Position numbers and translations under genes: made by a program
The notes under the pieces: model-generated
Seen by the model: the letters and a program-made list of their open reading frames with translations, nothing else
Told to the model about the DNA's origin: nothing
The model's database searches: none
In this document: positions 22,720 through 33,016 of the stretch, in pieces
Position numbering within the stretch: the stretch's first letter is position 1
How the letters are laid out: the number at the start of each line of letters is the position of its first letter
DNA from: a virus
Lineage: Duplodnaviria; Heunggongvirae; Uroviricota; Caudoviricetes
Length of the DNA stretch: 64,000 nucleotides
Strand: one strand, 5' to 3'
Virus record (IMG/VR): IMGVR_UViG_2878480445_000013

Positions 22720-25700
22720 TTACTTGAAGACCGAATCATCCTCGTGGATCATGCCGTTGATCTTATCGGCAACGGTCTGTGCCAGTTCGTCATCGTTCCG
22801 CACGTTATAGCCGTTGACTGTGATATACACACCGCCAAGGTTGGTCGTCCGGGTCGTACCGCCTCCGGCCAGAGCTGCCTGTGGGAAGTTCCATCCAGAG
22901 CCATCGAAGTGCGGCAGGGTCAGTTCCGGCAGGCTGAAAGAACTGATGCCCTCCATTCCCTGCTGTACCTTTGCTGCCATCGACTTGATCTGGCTGATCA
23001 GTCCACCCTCGCCTTTCTTGATGCCGCCAGTCAGCAGCTTCATGAAATCTGGCATATAGGTATCGGCATCAGACAAAGGACCCTCGTCCGGCACCGAGAA
23101 GTGCAGGAACGAGCGGATGCCCTTCGCCACACTTTTGACTGCGCTGCCGACCCAGCTCACGCCCTTTTTGATGCCTCCTGCGATACCGCCAACGATGTCC
23201 TTGCCCCAGCTGACTGCCGAGGAAGCCACGTTCTTGATACCGCCCCAAATGGACGAAGCCACGTTGCCAATAGCAGAAGCCGCATTGGAGATACCGTTCT
23301 TGATGGCCGACACACCCTTAGAGAACACCGACGTGACCTTGTTCCAGATATTTGTGACACCCTCACGGAAGCCATCACAGTTTTTCCAGAGTGCTCTCAA
23401 CCCAAGGCCAATTCCACCTACCGCTGCCACTGCGATACCTGCGGGACCCGCCAAGCCAGCAAGTGCTGTGCCTGCGGATGCGAGGAAACCACCTGCGGAG
23501 CTTGCTACGCCTGCAAGGGCCGTACCCGCACCTGCCGCCAAACCAGATACGGTCGTACCGACAGAACCGAGCAGACCGGAAAGCGTTGTGCCGACTGTCC
23601 CGGCAATACCGCCCAGCGAAGAACCGATAGACGATACAATACCGGAAAGACTGCCGCCTAAACCGCCGATCTTCGACACTACACCGGAAAGCAGCCCGCC
23701 CAGATTCGACAGGATTCCCCCACCGCTGGAGCCAAGGCTTCCCAGCTTCGAGATGATGCCGGAGATTCCCTCTCCCAGACCACCCATTTTGGAAGTCAGC
23801 CCAGAGATCAGGTTGCCAAAGTTCGACACGATCTGACCGCCATCTGCACTGCCGATCTTCGACAGGAAACTGCCGATGTTTGACAGCAGACCGCCTCCGT
23901 TCTCTGTACCGAGGACGTTGCCAAGGTTCTGCATCGTGCTTCCAAGGTTTCCGATGGTGTTCTTCATGGAGCCGAGCTTGTCCACAAGACCGGTGACCGT
24001 ATTGACCGTGTCACCGACTTTGCTGATGCCGCTTCCCAGGCTCTTTAGGAAATCCGAGTTGAGGGTATCGCCAAGGCTGCGGATCGCATTTCCAAGGGAA
24101 CTGGTCTGAGAACTCAGCTCCCCAATGGAATCCTTCATATCCGTAAAGCCCTGCTTCACTTCATCGCTCATACTGCCGACTGCGGTTTTGGTGATGACCT
24201 GCAGGTCAGCCCAGAGCTGCTGGAACTGTGTTTTCAGCCCGGAAAGTCCGGAAATCAGCTGGGTCTGGATACCGCTTCCCACATCCCTTGCAGCACTACC
24301 GATACCACTCTGACTTCTCTTGATCGTAGTGGCAAAACTGCCGATCACAGAATCCATCCAGCCACCCAGAGAATCCACAGGAGTTGTGAGGTTGCTGCTC
24401 ATAGACCCGGCAAGCCCCTGCACAGCCTTCACTACCGACTTGACATTTTTCTTAATGCCGGTCGCCAGCAGCTTCATGAAGTCGGGCATATAGGTATCTG
24501 CATCGGACAGAGGGCCTTCATCTGGCACGGAGAAATGCAGCAGGCTTCTGACCCTGCTTGCGACATTTTCTGCCGCTGCGATCACGGAACCGGCTGCTGC
24601 CCGGACACCTGCCGCCATCTGGGAACAGATATCTGCACCCCAGCGGTATGCCGAAGAAGCAATCGAACCGAGCGAGTTAAAGCTGCTCCTGATATTTGCA
24701 ACACCTGAGGAAACCGTGCTGCGCAGGCTGGACATTGCCGAAGACACCGTGGACTTGATGCTATTGAAAGCAGAGGTCGTGGTAGATTTCAGTGTGTTCC
24801 AGCCGCTTGTGACCGTACTGCGAACTGCGGATACAGAGGAAGTTGTAAGAGACTTGATACTGTTCCACGCTGTCGTGATGACTGTTTTGATACCATTCCA
24901 GCTTGTGTTCGTCAGAGTTTTCACTGCGTTCCATGCGCTTGTCATGGACGATTTTACAGAAGCAGTCGCCGAAGTAGTCAGAGACTTGATTCCGTTCCAT
25001 GCTGTGGTGATAACGCTCTTGATGCCGTTCCAGCTGGTCGTTGTCAGCGACTTCACGGCATTCCATGCACTGGTCATGGAAGATTTGACTGCCGCTGTTG
25101 CAGAGGTCACATTGGATTTCACCGCCGAGAAGCTGTTCTGGATACTGGACTTGATGGTATTCCATGTGCTGGCGGTACTGGTCGTAATGGAACTCCATGC
25201 AGATTTCATCGCGGCACTTACACCTGCCGTTCCGTTTCTTACCGTCTGGCTGATGGCCGCCCAGCTCTTACTGTATGCCTGCTCCACACCTCTCATGGAG
25301 TTGGTGATGGAGGTAGACAGCGTGGTGGACAGGTTTTCTGCCGCCGCAGTTACAAGGCTGGTGTTGGTCGTGATGCCGTTTGCCAGACCCTGCATAAAGT
25401 CCGGCATCCAGCTTTCCATATCAGCCAACGGGCCTTCGTCCGGCACGGAGAAGTGCAGGAAGGAACGGATACGGTCCGCCACTCCCGATACGGCATTTGC
25501 CACATCCTGAATCCTCGACTGGATACCGGACACAATGTTGCCGATCATGTCTGAACCCCACGAGAATGCCTGACCAGCCAGACCCTTGATAAAGGAAACC
25601 GCACTGTTAAAACCGTTCGTGATGGTGGTCTTAATACCGGAAATCGTAGAGGAAATCCCGGATTTCATCGAGTTAAAAGCTGTGGCCGCTGCACTCTTGA

Positions 25701-28639
25701 TGCTGTTACTGAGGGACGATACCGTGGATTTCATAGCATTCCAGCCGGAAGAAACTACCGATTTGATGCCATCTACCACCCCGGAGATCTTGCTGCTGAT
25801 GGCAGTCCAGATAGAAGAAACCGTGGACCGGATCGCAGAAAGGACAGTCGAAATGACCATCTTGATCGCATTCCATGCCGTACTCATCCGGGTCTGGATG
25901 CCAGTCAACAACGGAGACAGGAAGGATACAATCGCATTCCACACCGTTGTCACTGCTGTCTGGATCGCAGTCAGTACAGTAGAAACAGCTGTCTGGATCG
26001 CGGACCAAACCGTAGAGAAAGTCGTCTGCAACTCAGTCAGCAGCGGAGTCACAAAGGCGACGATGGCGTTCCAGATAGAAGTGATCTTCGTCTGGATTGC
26101 GGTCAGTGCTGCGCCGATCAGGATCTGAATCGCCTGCCAGATGGTCTCAAACAGATATTTGAACGCATCCAGCAGAGGCTTTATGGTGTTATAGATGCCA
26201 TTCCACACCGAAGTGATCGTCGTGCTGATGGTGTTCATGACCGTAGAGATCGCGGTCGAGATCGCCGTCCACACAGTTGTCACCGTGGTATGGATCGTAT
26301 TTATTACAGAAGAAACTGCTGTGGAAATAGCAGTCCAGATGGTACTGAAGGTCGTCTGGATACTCGTAAGAACAGTCGTAAAGAAGCTCGAAACTGCTGT
26401 AAATACAGTCGTTGCCACTGACTGGATAGCAGAAACTGTGTTTGAAAAGAAGCTGCTGATTCCACCCCACACGGTCTCGAAAAAGCTCTTGATACTGCCC
26501 CAGACAGTCTGCCAGTCTGTCCCGAACAGACCAAAGAACACATCCAGTGCGCTCTTTAATGCGGTAAGAGTCGTAGAGAATACAGACTTCACACCTTCCC
26601 AGATGCTGGAGAAGATTCCCTTTACCGCTTCCCATGCGCCGCTCCAGTTGCCGGAGAACACATTGGAAAAGACATCGAACAGACCCAGTAAGGTATCCAG
26701 AACGACACCGAGGATAGTCGAAATATTCTGGAATGCTCCCTCAAACAACGGTGCAAGCACTTGACAAAAGCCATCCCAGACTGCTTTCAGTACCTCGGTG
26801 ACATCCTTAAAGTCGAAGCCCAGCCCGTTGATCCGCTGTGTCAGCTGGTCGCAGAAGCCTTTCACCTTGGAAACAATGTCGTTCCAGATGCCGGTAATGG
26901 CAGTACGGAACTCTTCATTGGTGTTCCAGAGATTCATGAATGCTGCCACCAGCGTACCGATGACCGCCACCACTGCTACGACCGGCCCGGATAGACCACC
27001 CAGAACCACACCCAGCTTGCTGAACACACCGCTGGCACTGCCCACATGGGTGATGAGAAGCCGGACACCCTTTGCAAGAGAACTGAACCCCCGCATCGCT
27101 GTGCCAACCGTTGATATGGTCTTGCCAAGCACAATGAGCAGCGGACCAATGGATGCTGCCAGTAGTCCGATCTTGATGATCGTTTCCCTAGTACTTTCAT
27201 CCATACTGTTGAGCTTGTCCACGAACTGCTGCACGGCAGATACGATCTTACGGATGGTCGGCATCAGGATATCGCCAAAAGAAATAGCCAGCTCTTCCAA
27301 CTGAGATTTCAGGATGGTGAGCTGACCATTTAAGTTGTCCTGCATGGTTTCTGCCATGCTCTCTGATGCGCCGTCACAGTTTTCAATGGCACCACGCAGT
27401 TTGTTGATGTCCGTTTCACTGGAATTCATCAGGCAAGGAAACCGGACATGGCATTCTTGCCGACCAGTGCTTCTGCATTGGCTGCTTTCTCAGATTCCGA
27501 CAGCCCAGAAAATGCCACACGGCAATCCGCAAGGATATCGTTCAGGCTTCTCATGCTGCCATCCGCGTTGCTGGTCGCAATCGTGACCTCACCGATGTTC
27601 TTGCCCACAAAGGTCACTTCACCGGAAAGGTTGTTCATGATGGTACGAAGGGACGTACCTGCCTGCGAAGCCTTGATACCACTGTTTGCCATCAGACCGA
27701 TGGCTTCTGCGGTATCCTCTGCCGAGAACCCCAGTGCACCGGCGATAGGTGCGCAGTACTTGAACGTCTCGCCCATCATGGAGACATTGGTATTCGCATT
27801 GGAAGAAGCGGCTGCAAGGATATCTGCAAAATGCCCGGAATCTGCCGCAGACAAGCCGAAAGCTGTGAGGGCATCCGTAACGATATCCGAAGTCGTGGCG
27901 AGGTCTTCACCGGATGCCGCCGCGAGGTTCATGATACCCTCGATGCCGTTCAGCATGTCAGAAGTCTTCCATCCGGCCATGGCCATGTATTCCATCGCCG
28001 AAGCAGCCTCGGATGCGGAGAACTTTGTCTTTGCACCCATCTCACGGGCTTTTGCACGAAGCTGGTCGAAGTCATCCCCAGTCGCACCGGAAATAGCAGA
28101 AACCTTGCTCATCTCGGAATCGAAGTCGGCTGCCGTCTTCACTGCGGCAGTGCCAAGACCCGTTACAGCGGCAGTCACCGGCAGGAACTTCTTGCCGACA
28201 TTCTCCACAGAAGATCCGATGTTCTGAAGCTTTTCTCCGGCTTCATCGATCTTGGCAAGCGTCGCATTTGTAGTGGCCGCCTGGTCCTGTAAGGATCGCA
28301 GATTCTGTTCAGTCTCCACGATCTCACGCTGGAGGGCATCATACTGCTGCTGGGTGATCTCACCGTTGGCAAGCTGCTCATTGGCCTGCTGAGCCGCAGT
28401 CTTCAGCGTTGCCAGCTTTTCCTTGGTAGCTCAATGGCATCCTTCAGCATCTTCTGCTTCTGAACGACCAGTTCTGTATTGGAAGGGTCCAGTTTCAGGA
28501 GTTTGTTGACATCCTTCAGTCCGGACTGCGTCCCCTTGATTGACTTGTTTACACTTTCCAGTGCTTTGGAGAGCTTGGTGGTATCGCCGCCGATCTCAAC
28601 GGTGATGCCCTGGATTCTGGATGCCATGTGGATGACCAC
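22720..28639 (-). CDS. tail tape measure protein (TP901-family N-terminus), about 1970 aa, interrupted twice
   Basis: The three ORFs 28403..28639 (MASRIQGITVEIGGDTTKLSKALESVNKSIK...), 27429..28319 and 22720..27429 are contiguous pieces. At about 28410-28420, MLKDAIE continues as TKEKLATLKTAAQQANEQ in the next frame. A TGATGA junction at 27424-27432 sits between ...SGFLA and MNSSETDINKL. The 1569-aa part has periodic W/F repeats typical of tape measure proteins. Confidence 0.8.
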
Positions 28640-28844
28640 CTCCTTTTGGGCATGAAAAAAGCCCGACTTGCTTTGTCACAAGTGGGGCAAAATTAAAATA
28701 CGAAATGATAAACTTGAAATTTCTAGAGTAATTTCGCTTTAGCAATTTCACAAAAAGCCATTTTCTTGAAATTGCTAAGCAAAACAGGCCACGAATTTTC
28801 ATTTTCCGATGATTTTCTACCTATTGGAGGTAATGTCCGAAAAA

Positions 28845-28887
28845 TTGATATAAAAATACCCCTGTCAGATTTCTCCGACAAGGGTGT
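28845..28887 (-). terminator. rho-independent terminator closing the AbiE-like insertion
   Basis: Hairpin ACCCCTGTCAGATTTCTCCGACAAGGGTGT (28858-28887). On the minus strand it is followed by UAUUUUUAUAU. Confidence 0.55.
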
Positions 28888-28891
28888 ATTA

Positions 28892-29611
28892 TCAGTTGTT
28901 ATTCTTTTCTTTTTTTGCTTTGGCTGCTTTTAGGATATCCACAAGATTATCTCCGTTTAGAACATCCGGATAATCCTCCTGAAACTCCAACAAAATATCC
29001 TTATTCTGCATTTCATCTTCACGAATTTTCTCATACAGTGCCGAAAGATCCGGATTCTGGTAAACTGCCTCGATGAAAGTTCTCGATGATTCCGGTAAGT
29101 TCTCATACCCCTCATACAATTCATCAGCAGCTCGTTTGATGCTATCTAAACTAATTTCTTTTTTAGCATTCTTTTGCTCAATAAGAATTCCTACAACATC
29201 TGACAGATCATTTTTATACTGTCTGCCTGCCATTAACTTCATTACAACCAAATATTCTGCTGATACAGTCCGGATTCTTAAAACATTTGAGAATGTCTTA
29301 TAATACTGCGAATACTGGATCAATTTAGGCGTATAAGATGCTGTCTTCATGAAGTCTGTGTTTAACCATCCATTTGGAAGGCCCATCCGGTCTCCAACAT
29401 GGTTAATGGCATCTTTCATAGAGGATGATGCCTGTATAATTGCATCCATATCGTATGTCATCTCACGAAAGCCATAATTGATGAGTACCGCTGCACCACC
29501 AATCAAAATAATTTCAGCGGGCATTCGTGATCCATTCATTTTCCTAAATTCTTTTGATAATTCTTTCAGATACCCATCCAAATTATCTTTTGTAAATGGT
29601 ACTTCAGACAA
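28892..29611 (-). CDS. nucleotidyltransferase, AbiEii/DUF1814-like toxin family (putative)
   Basis: Pol-beta NTase signature IILIGGAAVLINYGFREMTYDMDAI (hGG-x14-DhD). N-terminus LKELSKEFRKM...IGGAAV resembles the AbiEii LKGGTAL block. Low GC. Confidence 0.5.
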   Translation of the reverse strand: MSEVPFTKDNLDGYLKELSKEFRKMNGSRMPAEIILIGGAAVLINYGFREMTYDMDAIIQASSSMKDAINHVGDRMGLPNGWLNTDFMKTASYTPKLIQYSQYYKTFSNVLRIRTVSAEYLVVMKLMAGRQYKNDLSDVVGILIEQKNAKKEISLDSIKRAADELYEGYENLPESSRTFIEAVYQNPDLSALYEKIREDEMQNKDILLEFQEDYPDVLNGDNLVDILKAAKAKKEKNNN

Positions 29612-29677
29612 GGTTTCTTACCTCGCTTTCTACAATATTAAACCTCATAAACTCAGGAATTGCCCTTTTTCTTGCCT

Positions 29678-30193
29678 CTATTTTACAGTCTCACTATGCA
29701 TAACCGCAGCCTGAATCAGCACACTTGAAGGATACACCACCTGTGCCAATTTATGTCTACGGATATCGTTATAATTCGTACACATAGGAAGGTCATTAAT
29801 CTTCGACAAATAATCAATCATTCCCAGCAAGTACAAAGATTCTGGATACCACATTTTTTTATAAAGGCTTCGGATTGTATCATTTTCCAAAGTATTAATA
29901 ATAAAATCAATATCACCCATATCCTTTACATGATGGCAAGTGTTGCTTTTGAACGTTTCAAAAGAACTACGGTATTCTGCATTTTGTGCCATTTCCTGCT
30001 CATCTGCTTCCAATAAAGCATCAACTGTAACATTCAATGCTTTTGCTATTTTATATAGTGTTCCAGCTGAACATTTTTCCATTGAAGTTTTTCCACTGCA
30101 AATGTCCGATATTGTGGCTTGTGCAACACCACTTGTTTTACTCAACTTATACCGACTCATTTTGGCTTCCCTAAGAAGTTCATCAATAATCAT
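29678..30193 (-). CDS. XRE-family HTH protein with about 110-aa C-terminal domain of unknown function
   Basis: N-terminus MSRYKLSKTSGVAQATISDICSGKTSMEKCSAGTLYKIAKALNVTVDALLE is an HTH_3 fold. It lies between the AbiEi-like and NTase genes. Confidence 0.6.
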   Translation of the reverse strand: MIIDELLREAKMSRYKLSKTSGVAQATISDICSGKTSMEKCSAGTLYKIAKALNVTVDALLEADEQEMAQNAEYRSSFETFKSNTCHHVKDMGDIDFIINTLENDTIRSLYKKMWYPESLYLLGMIDYLSKINDLPMCTNYNDIRRHKLAQVVYPSSVLIQAAVMHSETVK

Positions 30194-30253
30194 GTATCAT
30201 CAACTCCTTTCTCTTATATTATATCGGCACACCGAAGTATAGTCAAGGATATT

Positions 30254-30838
30254 TTACAAAAGAACTTCCATATATCTGCGGATCACATTATCAACCCGAA
30301 ATAGCTTTGCATACTCCATGAGTCGATTCAGGTCCTTGTCTCGTCTGGAAACATATGTCTTCAGAATGGAATTGAAATCCTGTGCTTCAATACTGCTCCG
30401 GCTTCTCATCAGGTCACAAATCGTCCGTTCCAGGTCATACATCGGAATCATATTCCCGTCATTGTCTTTCACAATGATCTTTCCGACATCCAGTAATTCT
30501 CGTTTTACCGTATATACTTTACAACTTCCATCCGCTGTAAGCCGATGCGCATTGTAACCGCTGTATATGGTAAGTGTGTGGACAAACGGTTCTCTGTCTG
30601 TCAGGCCATGATAATAAAAAGCCTCGTCATGTGAAAAAACAACATTTGCACATCTTTTATGAAGCACATACAGTTCATCTACCCAATCCGATCCCGTTGA
30701 ATAAACGCCCCGGCTGACCGACTCCAATCCGTTCTCTCGGACATATTTGTAAAACTTAAATTTTGAAATTCCAGATTCTTCCGCAATTTTCGGTGTAATA
30801 TAATCATAATTTTGAACCAATCTTGTCATCTCATCCAC
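30254..30838 (-). CDS. AbiEi-family type IV antitoxin / transcriptional regulator (putative)
   Basis: 194 aa. Core ...VFSHDEAFYYHGLTDREPF...MIPMYDLERTICDLMRSRSSIE...YVSRRDKDLNRLMEYAKLFRVDNVIRRYMEVLL matches the AbiEi pattern (HETAL.LHGL.D..P, ERTICD, KD.N.L..YAK..RV). Judged from memory of the family, not by HMM. Confidence 0.55.
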   Translation of the reverse strand: MDEMTRLVQNYDYITPKIAEESGISKFKFYKYVRENGLESVSRGVYSTGSDWVDELYVLHKRCANVVFSHDEAFYYHGLTDREPFVHTLTIYSGYNAHRLTADGSCKVYTVKRELLDVGKIIVKDNDGNMIPMYDLERTICDLMRSRSSIEAQDFNSILKTYVSRRDKDLNRLMEYAKLFRVDNVIRRYMEVLL

Positions 30839-30850
30839 AGAATCACCATC

Positions 30851-30888
30851 CTTCCGTGCTTATATTGTAATCGAAATAAGCACGGAAG
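30851..30888. promoter_or_regulatory. perfect 13-bp inverted repeat overlapping a -10 (TACAAT) upstream of the AbiEi gene; probable autoregulatory operator/promoter
   Basis: CTTCCGTGCTTAT-attgtaatcgaa-ATAAGCACGGAAG. In gene orientation a -35-like TCGACT lies 17 nt before TACAAT. AbiEi antitoxins are known to repress their own promoters via inverted repeats. Confidence 0.5.
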
Positions 30889-30903
30889 TCGAGCTTTATT
30901 CTG

Positions 30904-31469
30904 TTAAAAGACATCCATGTCATGTTGAGATGCCAGCTCTTTGTACGGATAGTCGTCGTTCTGCCGCTCTGTGAACATATCATTGACCAACCCGATGGTC
31001 AGCAGGTCGAGGTCGGCGATGCTGATACCGAGCTGTACACAGCGCAGCAGAAAGAGCGGGGTGGTCATTTCCCGCTCACTTTTGCGAGGTTTTTTCTGGA
31101 TTCCACCTCGGTCTGCACATTCAGACCCCACAGTTCGATCAGCTGGGGCAGGATCTGATAAATGGAGAAGGTGTTGAACTGGTCCAGGAACTCCTCCGGG
31201 CTGTCCGGCACCTTTGCCGGGTCTGCATGACGGGCCATCAGCCATGCCAGGTCCTCGAACATTTCCAGACTGAACAGGTCGAGGTTGGAATTATCCTCGT
31301 CGTTCTCTCCTACGCTCTTTTCCAGCTGGCGCAGATCCTTGTAGATGTCGCGGCCGAACTTTATCCGGTACAGGCGAGGCACAGCGGCACTTGCCTTAAA
31401 GGTTACTTCCTTGCCATCGATCTCGATTTTCTTTGTAACTGCCATAATCGTAATCCTCCAAAATTTCAT
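30904..31469 (-). CDS. tail assembly chaperone G (31065..31469) and G-T fusion made by a programmed -1 ribosomal frameshift
   Basis: G frame ends ...VESRKNLAKVSGK*. The slippery heptamer A_AAA_AAC (plus-strand T-run at about 31090-31096) sits 9 codons before the stop. A -1 shift reads KKPRKSEREMTTPLFLLRCVQLGISIADLDLLTIGLVNDM... to 30904. The position between major tail and tape measure genes is canonical. Confidence 0.75.
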
Positions 31470-31511: not shown

Positions 31512-32349
31512 TTACTCTGCCGAGTCAATGCTGACCAGTGCATTACCGCCGCTCACAGTCGGCAGCTTTCCATCCCACTTCTGGATCTTCTGGTAATCAA
31601 TCAGCGTATCGGACAGACTTTCTGCCAGTTTGCGGTTTGCCTCTGCCTGTGCATCTGCGGCAATGGAAGTTTTCTGGGCATCCGCCTCTGCATTGGTGAT
31701 CGCCACCTGCTTATCCGCTTCTGCCTTGGCAATGGCGGCTTCATTCTCGATCTTCTGCTTATCTGCATTCTGCTGTGCAATGGACTTCTGCTGGATGGCT
31801 TCGTTATAGGCATCCTCGAAATTCATGTCGTTGATGACGACTTTGTTTACGAACACAACGTCCTCACCATATTTCTGCACAAGAGATTCTGCCAGCTTCT
31901 GCTGCGCCAGAGGCTCGATCCTGGTGCGGTTCGTTACCTCATTGGGACCAAGTTCAGCCATCGCAGACTTGATGGCAGATGCCACCAGCTCATCACCGAC
32001 CAGATTCTTGATGTCGGACACATTCGCATACAGCCAGGCACTCTTCTCAGGAAGCACCTGATAGGTCACGATGACATCAGCAGCATACACCGGAGTCTTG
32101 TCAGAGGCTTCGCCCCAGACCTGCGCCTCGATGTGTTTATCCTGCTGCTTGTTGTTGACCTTGTGAATGCTCTGCACAAAGGGAATGCAAAAGTTGAGCT
32201 TGCCGCTCTGGATGGTGGTCTCCTGGATCTGGCCAAAGCTGGTCTTCACGCCCGTGTATCCGGTGGGGATGATGTGAAACGAACAGACAGCCAGCACCAG
32301 AACGATAATCACTGCGAACAAAGGAAAAATCTTCTTCATAGTCATATAC
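31512..32349 (-). CDS. SPFH/band-7 (prohibitin/HflC-like) membrane protein
   Basis: True start MKKIFPLFAVIIVLVLAV (N-terminal TM helix, AAGAGG RBS). The SPFH core (GYTGVKTSFGQIQ...VYAADVIVTYQV...) is followed by an A/E/K/Q-rich coiled-coil. The upstream part of the track ORF is an alternative-start artefact. Confidence 0.7.
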
Positions 32350-32367
32350 CTCTTTATAATAATGTAA

Positions 32368-32385
32368 GCAGAGCCGAAGCCCTGC
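32368..32385 (-). repeat. copy B of the direct repeat / UUCG hairpin (see 31479-31496)
   Basis: Identical 18-mer GCAGAGCCGAAGCCCTGC located 17 nt after the major tail protein stop codon. Confidence 0.6.
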
Positions 32386-32401
32386 TGTGTGTGTCGGTCA
32401 C

Positions 32402-33016
32402 TTAGCCCTGCGGCTCCTCGGTGTGACTGGTGTCTTCGGTGTCCACAGCTTCCGCCTGCGGCTCGTAGACCGCATCGTACCACTTGTTATAGACATCATC
32501 GGTGGTGTTAGTACCGGTCTTGGCCTTGACATAACCGTTTGCCAGAGGGGTTGCCTGCAGGTTCAGGGTGTCTGTCTTGACTTCCTTGCTGTCCTCGTTG
32601 GTCTCACCCTCGATGGACGGACGGCTTGCCACACAGTTGTACAGCACATGGCGGATGTGACGCTGGTCACCATCGAACTCGAACAGGAAGGCGAAATGTT
32701 CCAGTTCCACATTGGCGTTCTCAGCAAGCACGCCGTTACCATCCAGTTCCTCGTGCATGATGTCCGTGAGGAAGCTCTCCGGGATCAGCGCGATCTCCAG
32801 ATCGCCCTCGTAGCCGGAGTTGTTATTCACAACATAGTAGGCGATATTGTCCGCATAGAACGGCTCGATCTCGCCATTGGCATCCATAGAAAGACTGACG
32901 GCACCGGGGATACGGACCGGCTTTGCATAGGTGACACTGCCATCTTCGTCAAAGGTTGCCTTTGCATAGTGGCAGTTTTTCAGGCCAAATTTGACCTTAT
33001 TGCTTTTCTTCGACAT
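32402..33016 (-). CDS. major tail protein (siphovirus, TP901-1/phi13-like)
   Basis: MSKKSNKVKFGLKNCHYAKATFDEDGSVTYAKPVRIPGAVSLSMDANGE... has the typical length (204 aa). The position is head-tail genes -> major tail protein -> tail assembly chaperone G/GT. Confidence 0.7.
   Translation of the reverse strand: MSKKSNKVKFGLKNCHYAKATFDEDGSVTYAKPVRIPGAVSLSMDANGEIEPFYADNIAYYVVNNNSGYEGDLEIALIPESFLTDIMHEELDGNGVLAENANVELEHFAFLFEFDGDQRHIRHVLYNCVASRPSIEGETNEDSKEVKTDTLNLQATPLANGYVKAKTGTNTTDDVYNKWYDAVYEPQAEAVDTEDTSHTEEPQG

Follow-up and report, generated by a model that had tools for sequence, protein, structure and literature searches.

An orphan abiEi gene and a stacked candidate HTH/DUF6036 nucleotidyltransferase module in an exchangeable cargo slot of a gut Lachnospiraceae phage

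The AbiE system of Lactococcus and Streptococcus agalactiae, classed as type IV among toxin-antitoxin (TA) systems and recently proposed as type VII, pairs AbiEi, an antitoxin and autorepressor, with the nucleotidyltransferase (NTase) toxin AbiEii. Phage morons and defence hot-spots with exchangeable cargo are known from HK97 (gp15, next to the tape measure), from P2/P4 and from the prophage defence of mycobacteriophages. The locus considered here, positions 28,845-30,903 of a 64,000-nucleotide sequence of a Caudoviricetes virus (IMG/VR record IMGVR_UViG_2878480445_000013; this whole stretch is referred to below as the window), carries minus-strand genes for an AbiEi protein, an XRE-type helix-turn-helix (HTH) protein and a DUF6036-family NTase. 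It was compared with 80 genome loci fetched via the HTH protein and 104 viral or metagenome loci fetched via AbiEi, all annotated with phmmer. The reading favoured by this comparison, at a probability of about 0.6, is that of an orphan AbiEi followed by a stacked, autonomous candidate NTase-toxin TA or abortive-infection module in a phage moron slot. A sequence-only reading of the same DNA had led with a three-gene AbiE variant and had kept two stacked systems, an orphan AbiEi and an HTH/NTase pair, as its fallback; the lead is not supported, given the absence of AbiEi from most of the genome loci that hold the pair, an NTase that is not AbiEii and the normal company of AbiEi, which is AbiEii, and the fallback is supported by the comparative loci. 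The AbiE part of the locus is known biology; the XRE-HTH/DUF6036 pair is a candidate of a still uncharacterised kind, with a partner domain that is new.

MenT and AbiEii toxins extend the acceptor ends of tRNA, and their antitoxins switch them off by inducing auto-phosphorylation at a threonine or serine of the active site (PMC11375011; bioRxiv 10.64898/2026.01.19.700257), and in S. agalactiae AbiEii the phospho-acceptor T65 sits in the active site (bioRxiv 10.64898/2026.01.19.700257). S. agalactiae AbiEi is reported to bind paired inverted repeats (PMC7319586), which the double inverted repeats of the canonical phage loci described below resemble. The window is like AbiE in that its first gene encodes a genuine AbiEi behind a promoter whose inverted repeats over the -10 box resemble the autoregulated abiE operator, in that sister phages hold a complete AbiEi-AbiEii pair in the same slot, and in that its enzyme, too, is a predicted pol-beta-type NTase with a GG...[ST]xDxD arrangement. 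It is unlike AbiE in that the window lacks the cognate AbiEii (DUF1814/PF08843) and that the DUF6036 NTase has its own XRE partner and promoter and occurs independently of AbiEi. The MenAT operons of Mycobacterium tuberculosis are likewise small, with an NTase toxin behind an upstream neutralising protein (a role that is inferred for the protein of the window) and a serine or threonine in the active-site strand before the DxD motif. MenT antitoxins are diverse and mutually unrelated, so that a new type of antitoxin beside an NTase has precedent; MenT, however, is a DUF1814 protein, whereas the window NTase belongs to DUF6036, is without detectable sequence match to solved structures and has as its partner an XRE-HTH protein with a novel domain. 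The type II systems HigBA, HipBA and Xre-RES share with the pair a candidate antitoxin gene in first position, an N-terminal XRE HTH, a palindromic operator in the promoter, overlapping frames, scatter over unrelated contexts and orphan antitoxin copies. They differ from it in that the candidate toxin is an NTase and not an RNase, kinase or ADP-ribosyltransferase, and in that searches of the PDB gave no match to the 125 residues at the C-terminal end of the HTH protein that form its second domain.

Evidence for two separate units comes from what stands behind abiEi in related phages. Behind homologues that share over 90% identity with the window AbiEi, a canonical 279-aa AbiEii gene (PF08843, 8.6e-40) begins 2 nt past the stop codon in about 79 of 101 loci, many of which are ordered chaperone G, chaperone T, AbiEi, AbiEii and tape measure. 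The HTH/DUF6036 payload takes this place in about 10 phages nearly identical to the window (L001, L081, L085, L088, L105-108, L128 and L173), and in about 6 loci a third payload is found, a Phd/YefM-like antitoxin with an overlapping 108-aa ParE/RelE-like protein. The abiEi gene is intact with every payload type, and its retention before Phd-ParE as well means that its presence is independent of the payload. By blastn, the window is homologous to the canonical AbiEi-AbiEii phages over 32500-30251 and 28664-26500 at 91-92% identity, and the payload alone differs. abiEii was swapped out exactly from its start codon: the junction reads TAAAAT-G in canonical phages, where the G completes the abiEii ATG, versus TAAAAT-ATCCTTGACT in the window. 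No AbiEii (PF08843) gene was met next to the window abiEi, the NTase there being a DUF6036 protein. The same hairpin (GGAGAAATCTGAC..GGGGTATTTTTATA) stands downstream of all three payloads, be it AbiEii, Phd-ParE or HTH/NTase, which assigns the terminator to the slot and not to the imported module; the scaffold of the slot consists of the AbiEi-controlled promoter and operator, abiEi, the payload position and this shared terminator. One Phd-ParE allele (L082, 7968-9257) contains a 429-aa group II intron-type reverse transcriptase/maturase, which brings that payload to 2.8 kb.

The module behind abiEi is autonomous: it has an operator-bearing promoter, overlapping frames, a conserved catalytic core and a spread over unrelated contexts. 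An HTH gene followed by an overlapping NTase gene is found in about 62 of the 80 genome loci, and an AbiEi-like open reading frame (ORF) lies nearby in only three of the 80: L001 represents the phage type of the window itself, and in L013 and L061 the AbiEi is accompanied by an AbiEii. The association of the HTH protein with NTases in other genomes is also seen from the side of the enzyme, the HTH gene standing directly upstream in 10 of 10 places from two look-ups on close NTase homologues (at least 81% identical). The window stretch common to the free-standing chromosomal modules runs from 30247 to about 28899, that is, from the -35 box to the NTase stop. The contexts of the module are mutually unrelated and include metabolic neighbourhoods in Marvinbryantia, HTH-peptidase and TIR-domain genes, and transposon-rich regions. 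A scan of viral contigs with the NTase returned the same three phages only, so that the module is mainly chromosomal. An intact HTH gene without the NTase occurs in about eight loci (among them L015, L016, L018, L038, L041, L054 and L074) and no NTase-only locus was seen among close relatives of the window NTase, an asymmetry that is expected if the NTase is the harmful partner. In two bacterial genomes (L013, 5384-8297; L061, 5094-8318), a complete AbiEi-AbiEii pair lies directly upstream of an HTH/DUF6036 pair; such side-by-side modules point to coexistence without replacement and to a possible intermediate for the phage allele. Nearly all genome loci are from Lachnospiraceae, and two (L002 and L027, with 61-93% identity to the window HTH protein) are labelled as Bacteroidaceae or Bacteroides metagenome-assembled genomes, labels that reflect either mis-binning or cross-phylum transfer.

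The module promoter, which the sequence-only reading did not mention, lies in the 60-nt gap between abiEi and the HTH gene and is stronger than the abiEi promoter. Free-standing loci have a TTGACA-17-TATAAT/TATATT promoter, with TCGG-N4-CCGA between the -35 and -10 boxes, at a fixed 36-43 nt from the start codon, in 56 of 61 cases. The layout is the textbook one for an HTH dimer that represses its own promoter, and the corresponding palindrome in the window is presumed to be the operator of that protein. The organisation as a whole is type II-like: a small gene pair, the DNA-binding partner first, overlapping frames and an operator within the promoter.

The enzyme of the module had been described as a short AbiEii-like NTase. 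It scores 47.8 bits against the Pfam model DUF6036 (PF19502; gathering cut-off 23.6) and falls short of AbiEii (PF08843) with 14.2 bits against a cut-off of 22.5, and hhalign of the NTase profile with a sister-phage AbiEii aligns about 40 columns around the catalytic motif only (E=0.068). It is therefore a DUF6036 protein, AbiEii-like at the superfamily level only. Conservation was assessed in 39 diverse full-length homologues of 33-60% identity, all of which match DUF6036, with 13 also matching DUF2204 and two AbiEii, weakly. The hGG...DxD signature attributed to the 239-aa protein is indeed present (LIGGAAV...REMTYDMDA) and conserved: G39, R49, D54, N84, K125, R130, D135, D138 and E200 are invariant in this set, and G38 and D56 are kept in 38 of the 39. 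By its hG[GS]...DxD signature the protein would be a pol-beta-type nucleotidyltransferase. Position 52, two residues before D54, is a threonine in 29 homologues and a serine in 10, and T52 aligns with T67 of the phage AbiEii within the ~40-column match, which makes control of the auto-phosphorylation type conceivable. The family is large: in a phmmer search of 1.84 billion cluster representatives, 1,527 clusters reach E<=1e-3.

The N-terminus of the middle protein is an XRE-type HTH (Pfam HTH_26 5e-11, HTH_3 3e-8). The sequence-only description of a 171-aa XRE-HTH protein with an uncharacterised C-terminal domain holds for the HTH and fails for the length, as the 171-aa product is truncated. 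All homologues of the protein are 193-196 aa long and have 25 additional residues in a highly conserved IPEFMRFNIVESEVRN tail, and in comparison with the 97%-identical phage L081 the window is one A short in the A-run 29681-29684, which gives a premature TAG. With the A restored, the 196-aa frame runs to 29604 and shares 8 nt with the NTase gene, whose start codon is TTG, as in the intact copies examined (L081, 6646-7236 and 7229-7948; also L188). Over 6 kb, four 1-nt deletions relative to L081 (29681-29684, 28780, 28432 and 27434) are seen, each of them in a homopolymer run and on the side of the window; those at ~28432 and 27434 divide the tape-measure gene into three ORFs. The short HTH ORF is thus probably a product of homopolymer sequencing or assembly error, from which other ORFs of the window may suffer likewise. 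The HTH gene is intact, at 196 aa, in 8 of the 9 window-type loci that are not cut off at a contig end; in L108, the HTH and NTase ORFs are both split. The C-terminal domain of the protein, of 125 residues, gave no match in searches of the PDB and is without a known fold match. A 190-aa ORF in L077 (7001-7573) matches the HTH protein, over its N-terminal 70 residues, as well as the NTase, apparently the result of an in-frame deletion that fused the HTH domain to the NTase.

The assignment of the 194-aa first protein to AbiEi, proposed from the sequence alone, is upheld. Its residues 3-193 match the PADLOC AbiEi model PDLC02225 at 1.4e-63 and residues 9-194 match S. agalactiae AbiEi (PDB 6Y8Q) over its full length at 5e-18, whereas the Pfam AbiEi models miss it (AbiEi_3_N, 14.8 bits vs a threshold of 26). 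Upstream of the gene, the -10 box is flanked on both sides by a perfect 13-bp inverted repeat, CTTCCGTGCTTAT at 30851-30863 and ATAAGCACGGAAG at 30876-30888, separated by a 12-nt spacer. The inverted repeat noted there is confirmed; it is the only perfect one in the window that reaches 13 bp (loops of 3 to 20 nt considered), and none arose in 300 shuffles of the 3-kb region. The -35/inverted repeat/-10 layout is kept upstream of abiEi in 93 related loci, mostly with canonical abiEii, and most canonical loci listed have a second inverted repeat further upstream with the same GTGC...GCAC core. A repeat in this position fits negative autoregulation by AbiEi, of which it is the predicted operator. 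Additional AbiEi half-sites or HTH palindromes elsewhere in the window are not above chance, so nothing points to control of further phage genes by AbiEi or by the HTH protein. In three metagenome contigs (L153-L155), three AbiEi-like genes lie within 5 kb, one of them divergent and on the opposite strand (L153, 5134-5727, 6001-6585 and 9230-9814), and no AbiEii was detected beside the first copy.

From these observations a sequence of events can be proposed. The AbiEii nucleotidyltransferase toxin, the commonest payload of the slot, would also be the ancestral one, and abiEii would have been replaced by an imported 1.35-kb module, widespread in Lachnospiraceae chromosomes, that comprises a sigma-70 promoter with an embedded palindrome, the 196-aa XRE-HTH protein and the translationally coupled, putatively pol-beta-type DUF6036 NTase. 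The HTH protein would bind the TCGG-N4-CCGA palindrome and repress its own operon, and its all-alpha C-terminal domain would keep the NTase inactive. Loss or titration of this labile partner, for example upon infection by another phage, would free the NTase, which would then nucleotidylate a cellular target (by analogy, the 3' end of tRNA) and arrest growth. For the lysogen, the outcome may be protection of the abortive-infection or exclusion type, or addiction, and AbiEi would be left outside the module as an orphan autorepressor and antitoxin. The toxicity of the NTase, its neutralisation by the C-terminal domain, its target and the defence phenotype are suggested by analogy with AbiEii and MenT (PMC11375011; bioRxiv 10.64898/2026.01.19.700257).

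A single three-component AbiE variant, in which AbiEi would serve, for example, as regulator or phosphorylation inducer, the HTH protein as adaptor and the DUF6036 protein as a short AbiEii, would account for three co-oriented, tightly spaced genes between one upstream operator and one terminator, which are kept together in about 10 phage copies (with the HTH and NTase ORFs of L108 split). It could further draw on the serine or threonine two residues before the DxD motif in both the NTase (REMTYDMD) and the phage AbiEii (RSTMDID), reminiscent of T65 of S. agalactiae AbiEii (bioRxiv 10.64898/2026.01.19.700257), and on the AbiEi-AbiEii genes beside the HTH-NTase genes in L013 and L061. In those two genomes, however, AbiEi has an AbiEii of its own; the HTH/NTase pair stands without AbiEi and with its own promoter and operator in about 60 loci; AbiEi is kept equally well before a Phd-ParE payload; and the NTase fails the AbiEii model. 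We regard this variant as very unlikely. A decaying, non-functional prophage remnant with genuine frameshifts in its HTH and tape-measure genes has somewhat more to recommend it, and the tape-measure gene in three ORFs and the truncated HTH gene speak in its favour. The four lesions are, however, single-nucleotide homopolymer deletions confined to the window side, over 6 kb whose remaining sequence shares 97% identity with intact phages; this pattern is the signature of long-read or assembly error, and no other kind of lesion was seen. Decay of this copy is considered unlikely.

The pair may also lie outside TA and defence altogether, as a regulator with a small-molecule NTase of the KNTase/ANT type that modifies antibiotics or metabolites and is carried as cargo. 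Antibiotic NTases share the DUF6036 architecture of an N-terminal NTase core and a C-terminal helical region, 13 of the 39 homologues touch the uncharacterised NTase family DUF2204, and some chromosomal contexts are plain metabolic neighbourhoods. This explanation is nonetheless rather improbable, given that no NCBIfam model and no other Pfam NTase family matches the protein, that the frames overlap by 8 nt at start and stop and an operator lies within the promoter, that two bona fide TA payloads are alleles at this slot, and that the remnants seen are of the HTH gene only, in a module scattered over unrelated contexts. Roles might, finally, be reversed. In the type VII HEPN-MNT systems a minimal NTase is the antitoxin, and by this precedent the NTase would act as antitoxin or modifier, and the effector would be the HTH protein's C-terminal domain, for which no fold match is known. 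An intact HTH gene from which the NTase has been deleted would not be tolerable were it the toxin, yet about eight loci have just this; a DNA-binding protein in first position together with an operator suits an antitoxin and repressor; and, at 239 aa, the NTase is larger than minimal MNT antitoxins. A reversal of this kind is thus very improbable.

Several observations weigh against an orphan AbiEi with an active NTase-toxin module. The NTase matched nothing significantly in PADLOC, NCBIfam or PHROG (best E-values 0.012 and 0.049), and the PADLOC and PHROG results are those that count against it; neither as a single sequence nor as a profile did it match PDB chains, and a full-text literature search for a DUF6036 function found nothing. 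Its AlphaFold2 model is poor, with a predicted local distance difference test score of 57.8, because the shallow alignment held close homologues only (at least 76% identity). The search in which no NTase-only locus was seen covered close relatives of the window NTase. Should the HTH frameshift be real, it would cost the protein its conserved last 25 residues and the gene pair its translational coupling, and the module of this prophage may be defective. The ratio of nonsynonymous to synonymous substitution rates (dN/dS) is 0.05-0.09 for all three genes between two HTH/NTase phage sub-lineages, a result in favour of the reading; with regard to AbiEi, this low ratio and orphan copies that are all intact leave room for some retained role. 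As proof of selection on the orphan the ratio was rejected: abiEi (dN/dS 0.09) has a dS of 0.24, twice that of the cassette (0.12-0.13), so that part of its signal may predate the swap. The orphan may be a relic kept for supplying the promoter and operator of the slot, or it may serve as a decoy antitoxin directed at AbiEii of other origin.

Table 1. Features of the locus and its flanks in the window, with positions, strand and supporting evidence.
Feature	Position	Strand	Evidence or details
Upstream phage flank, two small overlapping ORFs	30904..31469 (31065-31469 and 30904-31245)	-	phrog_709, phrog_3033; no named function
abiEi promoter and operator: -35-like TCGACT 30892-30887, -10 TACAAT 30869-30864	30851..30892	-	Promoter-like site
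abiEi, GTG start, 194 aa; AbiEi/COG5340-type antitoxin and autorepressor, orphan here	30254..30838	-	PADLOC; PDB 6Y8Q
Left junction of the payload swap	30247..30253	-	Canonical-phage homology stops at 30251, free-standing HTH/DUF6036 homology starts at 30247 (blastn)
Module promoter, TTGACT-17-TATAAT (11/12 matches)	30218..30246	-	Palindrome TTCGG-TGTG-CCGATA at 30222-30236 in the spacer
XRE-HTH gene, restored 196-aa frame	29604..30193 (listed ORF 29678-30193, 171 aa)	-	HTH, residues 1-63; all-alpha domain, residues ~75-190
DUF6036 nucleotidyltransferase, TTG start, 239 aa; candidate toxin/effector	28892..29611	-	Pfam DUF6036, 1.9e-12
Intrinsic terminator, 12-pair stem (28885-28858), 4-nt loop, U-run ATTTTTAT	28848..28885	-	Sole terminator-like site in 28300-31300
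Highly structured non-coding spacer	28655..28847	-	Long hairpin at ~28739-28778; second hairpin and T-run at 28655-28688
Downstream phage flank, tape-measure gene	22720..28639	-	PHROG tape-measure matches, 1e-25 and 1e-99

The anatomy of the locus agrees with what had been read from the sequence (Table 1). The ORF listing, the GC profile and the PHROG matches confirm a low-GC trio between tail chaperone and tape measure, with a GC content of 0.35-0.42 over 28600-30999 against 0.50-0.57 on either side, and the hairpin and U-run described as the terminator of the unit stand as well. The two small ORFs upstream are taken as tail-chaperone G/GT from their position between the major tail protein and tape-measure genes; downstream, the tape-measure gene is present as ORFs 28403-28639, 27429-28319 and 22720-27429. 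The locus thus has the features of a phage moron, namely its own promoter and terminator, deviant base composition, a late-operon location and variability among relatives. With described morons and hot-spots it shares the lower GC and alternative defence or TA cargos at a fixed position of otherwise collinear phages, and it differs from them in that the exchange takes place inside an operon, downstream of a retained antitoxin gene, which yields the orphan AbiEi, and in its hosts, gut Lachnospiraceae (Wujia-type), in which such slots are little described. A blastn search of the INPHARED phage collection with the cassette DNA gave no match.

Between the terminator and the tape-measure gene, about 190 nt of spacer are exclusive to the HTH/NTase allele in the alignment, and its second hairpin and T-run lie immediately ahead of the tape-measure ribosome-binding site. 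The fold of 28640-28895 has a z-score of -5.65. In the Rfam scan of 28300-31300 no family reached its gathering score, and a match to NsiR1 that overlaps the terminator hairpin (E=0.014) was dismissed. The spacer of L085 contains a further 43-nt insertion with repeated TGAAATTTC-like units. On the other side of the locus, a 323-aa ORF (31512-32483, minus strand) separates the major tail protein gene from those of the chaperones; it has a hydrophobic N-terminal segment and matches phrog_200 ("lipoprotein", 3e-41). It extends into the 3' end of the ORF for the major tail protein (32402-33016) and is a possible second moron of the tail operon.

That phage hot-spots exchange cargo is in itself expected. 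A wider proposal, for now tentative and rather doubtful, is that the HTH/DUF6036 pair founds a widespread, hitherto unrecognised family of NTase-toxin TA or abortive-infection systems (~1,500 clusters at 50% identity) in which a novel all-alpha domain would neutralise the NTase, possibly via auto-phosphorylation of T/S52, and that the position behind abiEi is a toxin exchange site whose orphan AbiEi would act as a decoy against AbiEii toxins that the host or rival prophages encode. An annotation pipeline faced with AbiEi beside an NTase will mis-annotate such a locus as complete AbiE. The reading favoured here, of an orphan AbiEi and an autonomous module, would give a concrete and testable role to DUF6036, a large family without literature, and to the new XRE-fused domain, within a candidate NTase-toxin TA or defence module that is common in human-gut Lachnospiraceae. 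The slot itself, with three interchangeable toxin cargos behind a retained AbiEi, is a natural experiment that informs on the exchange of prophage cargo and on orphan antitoxins.

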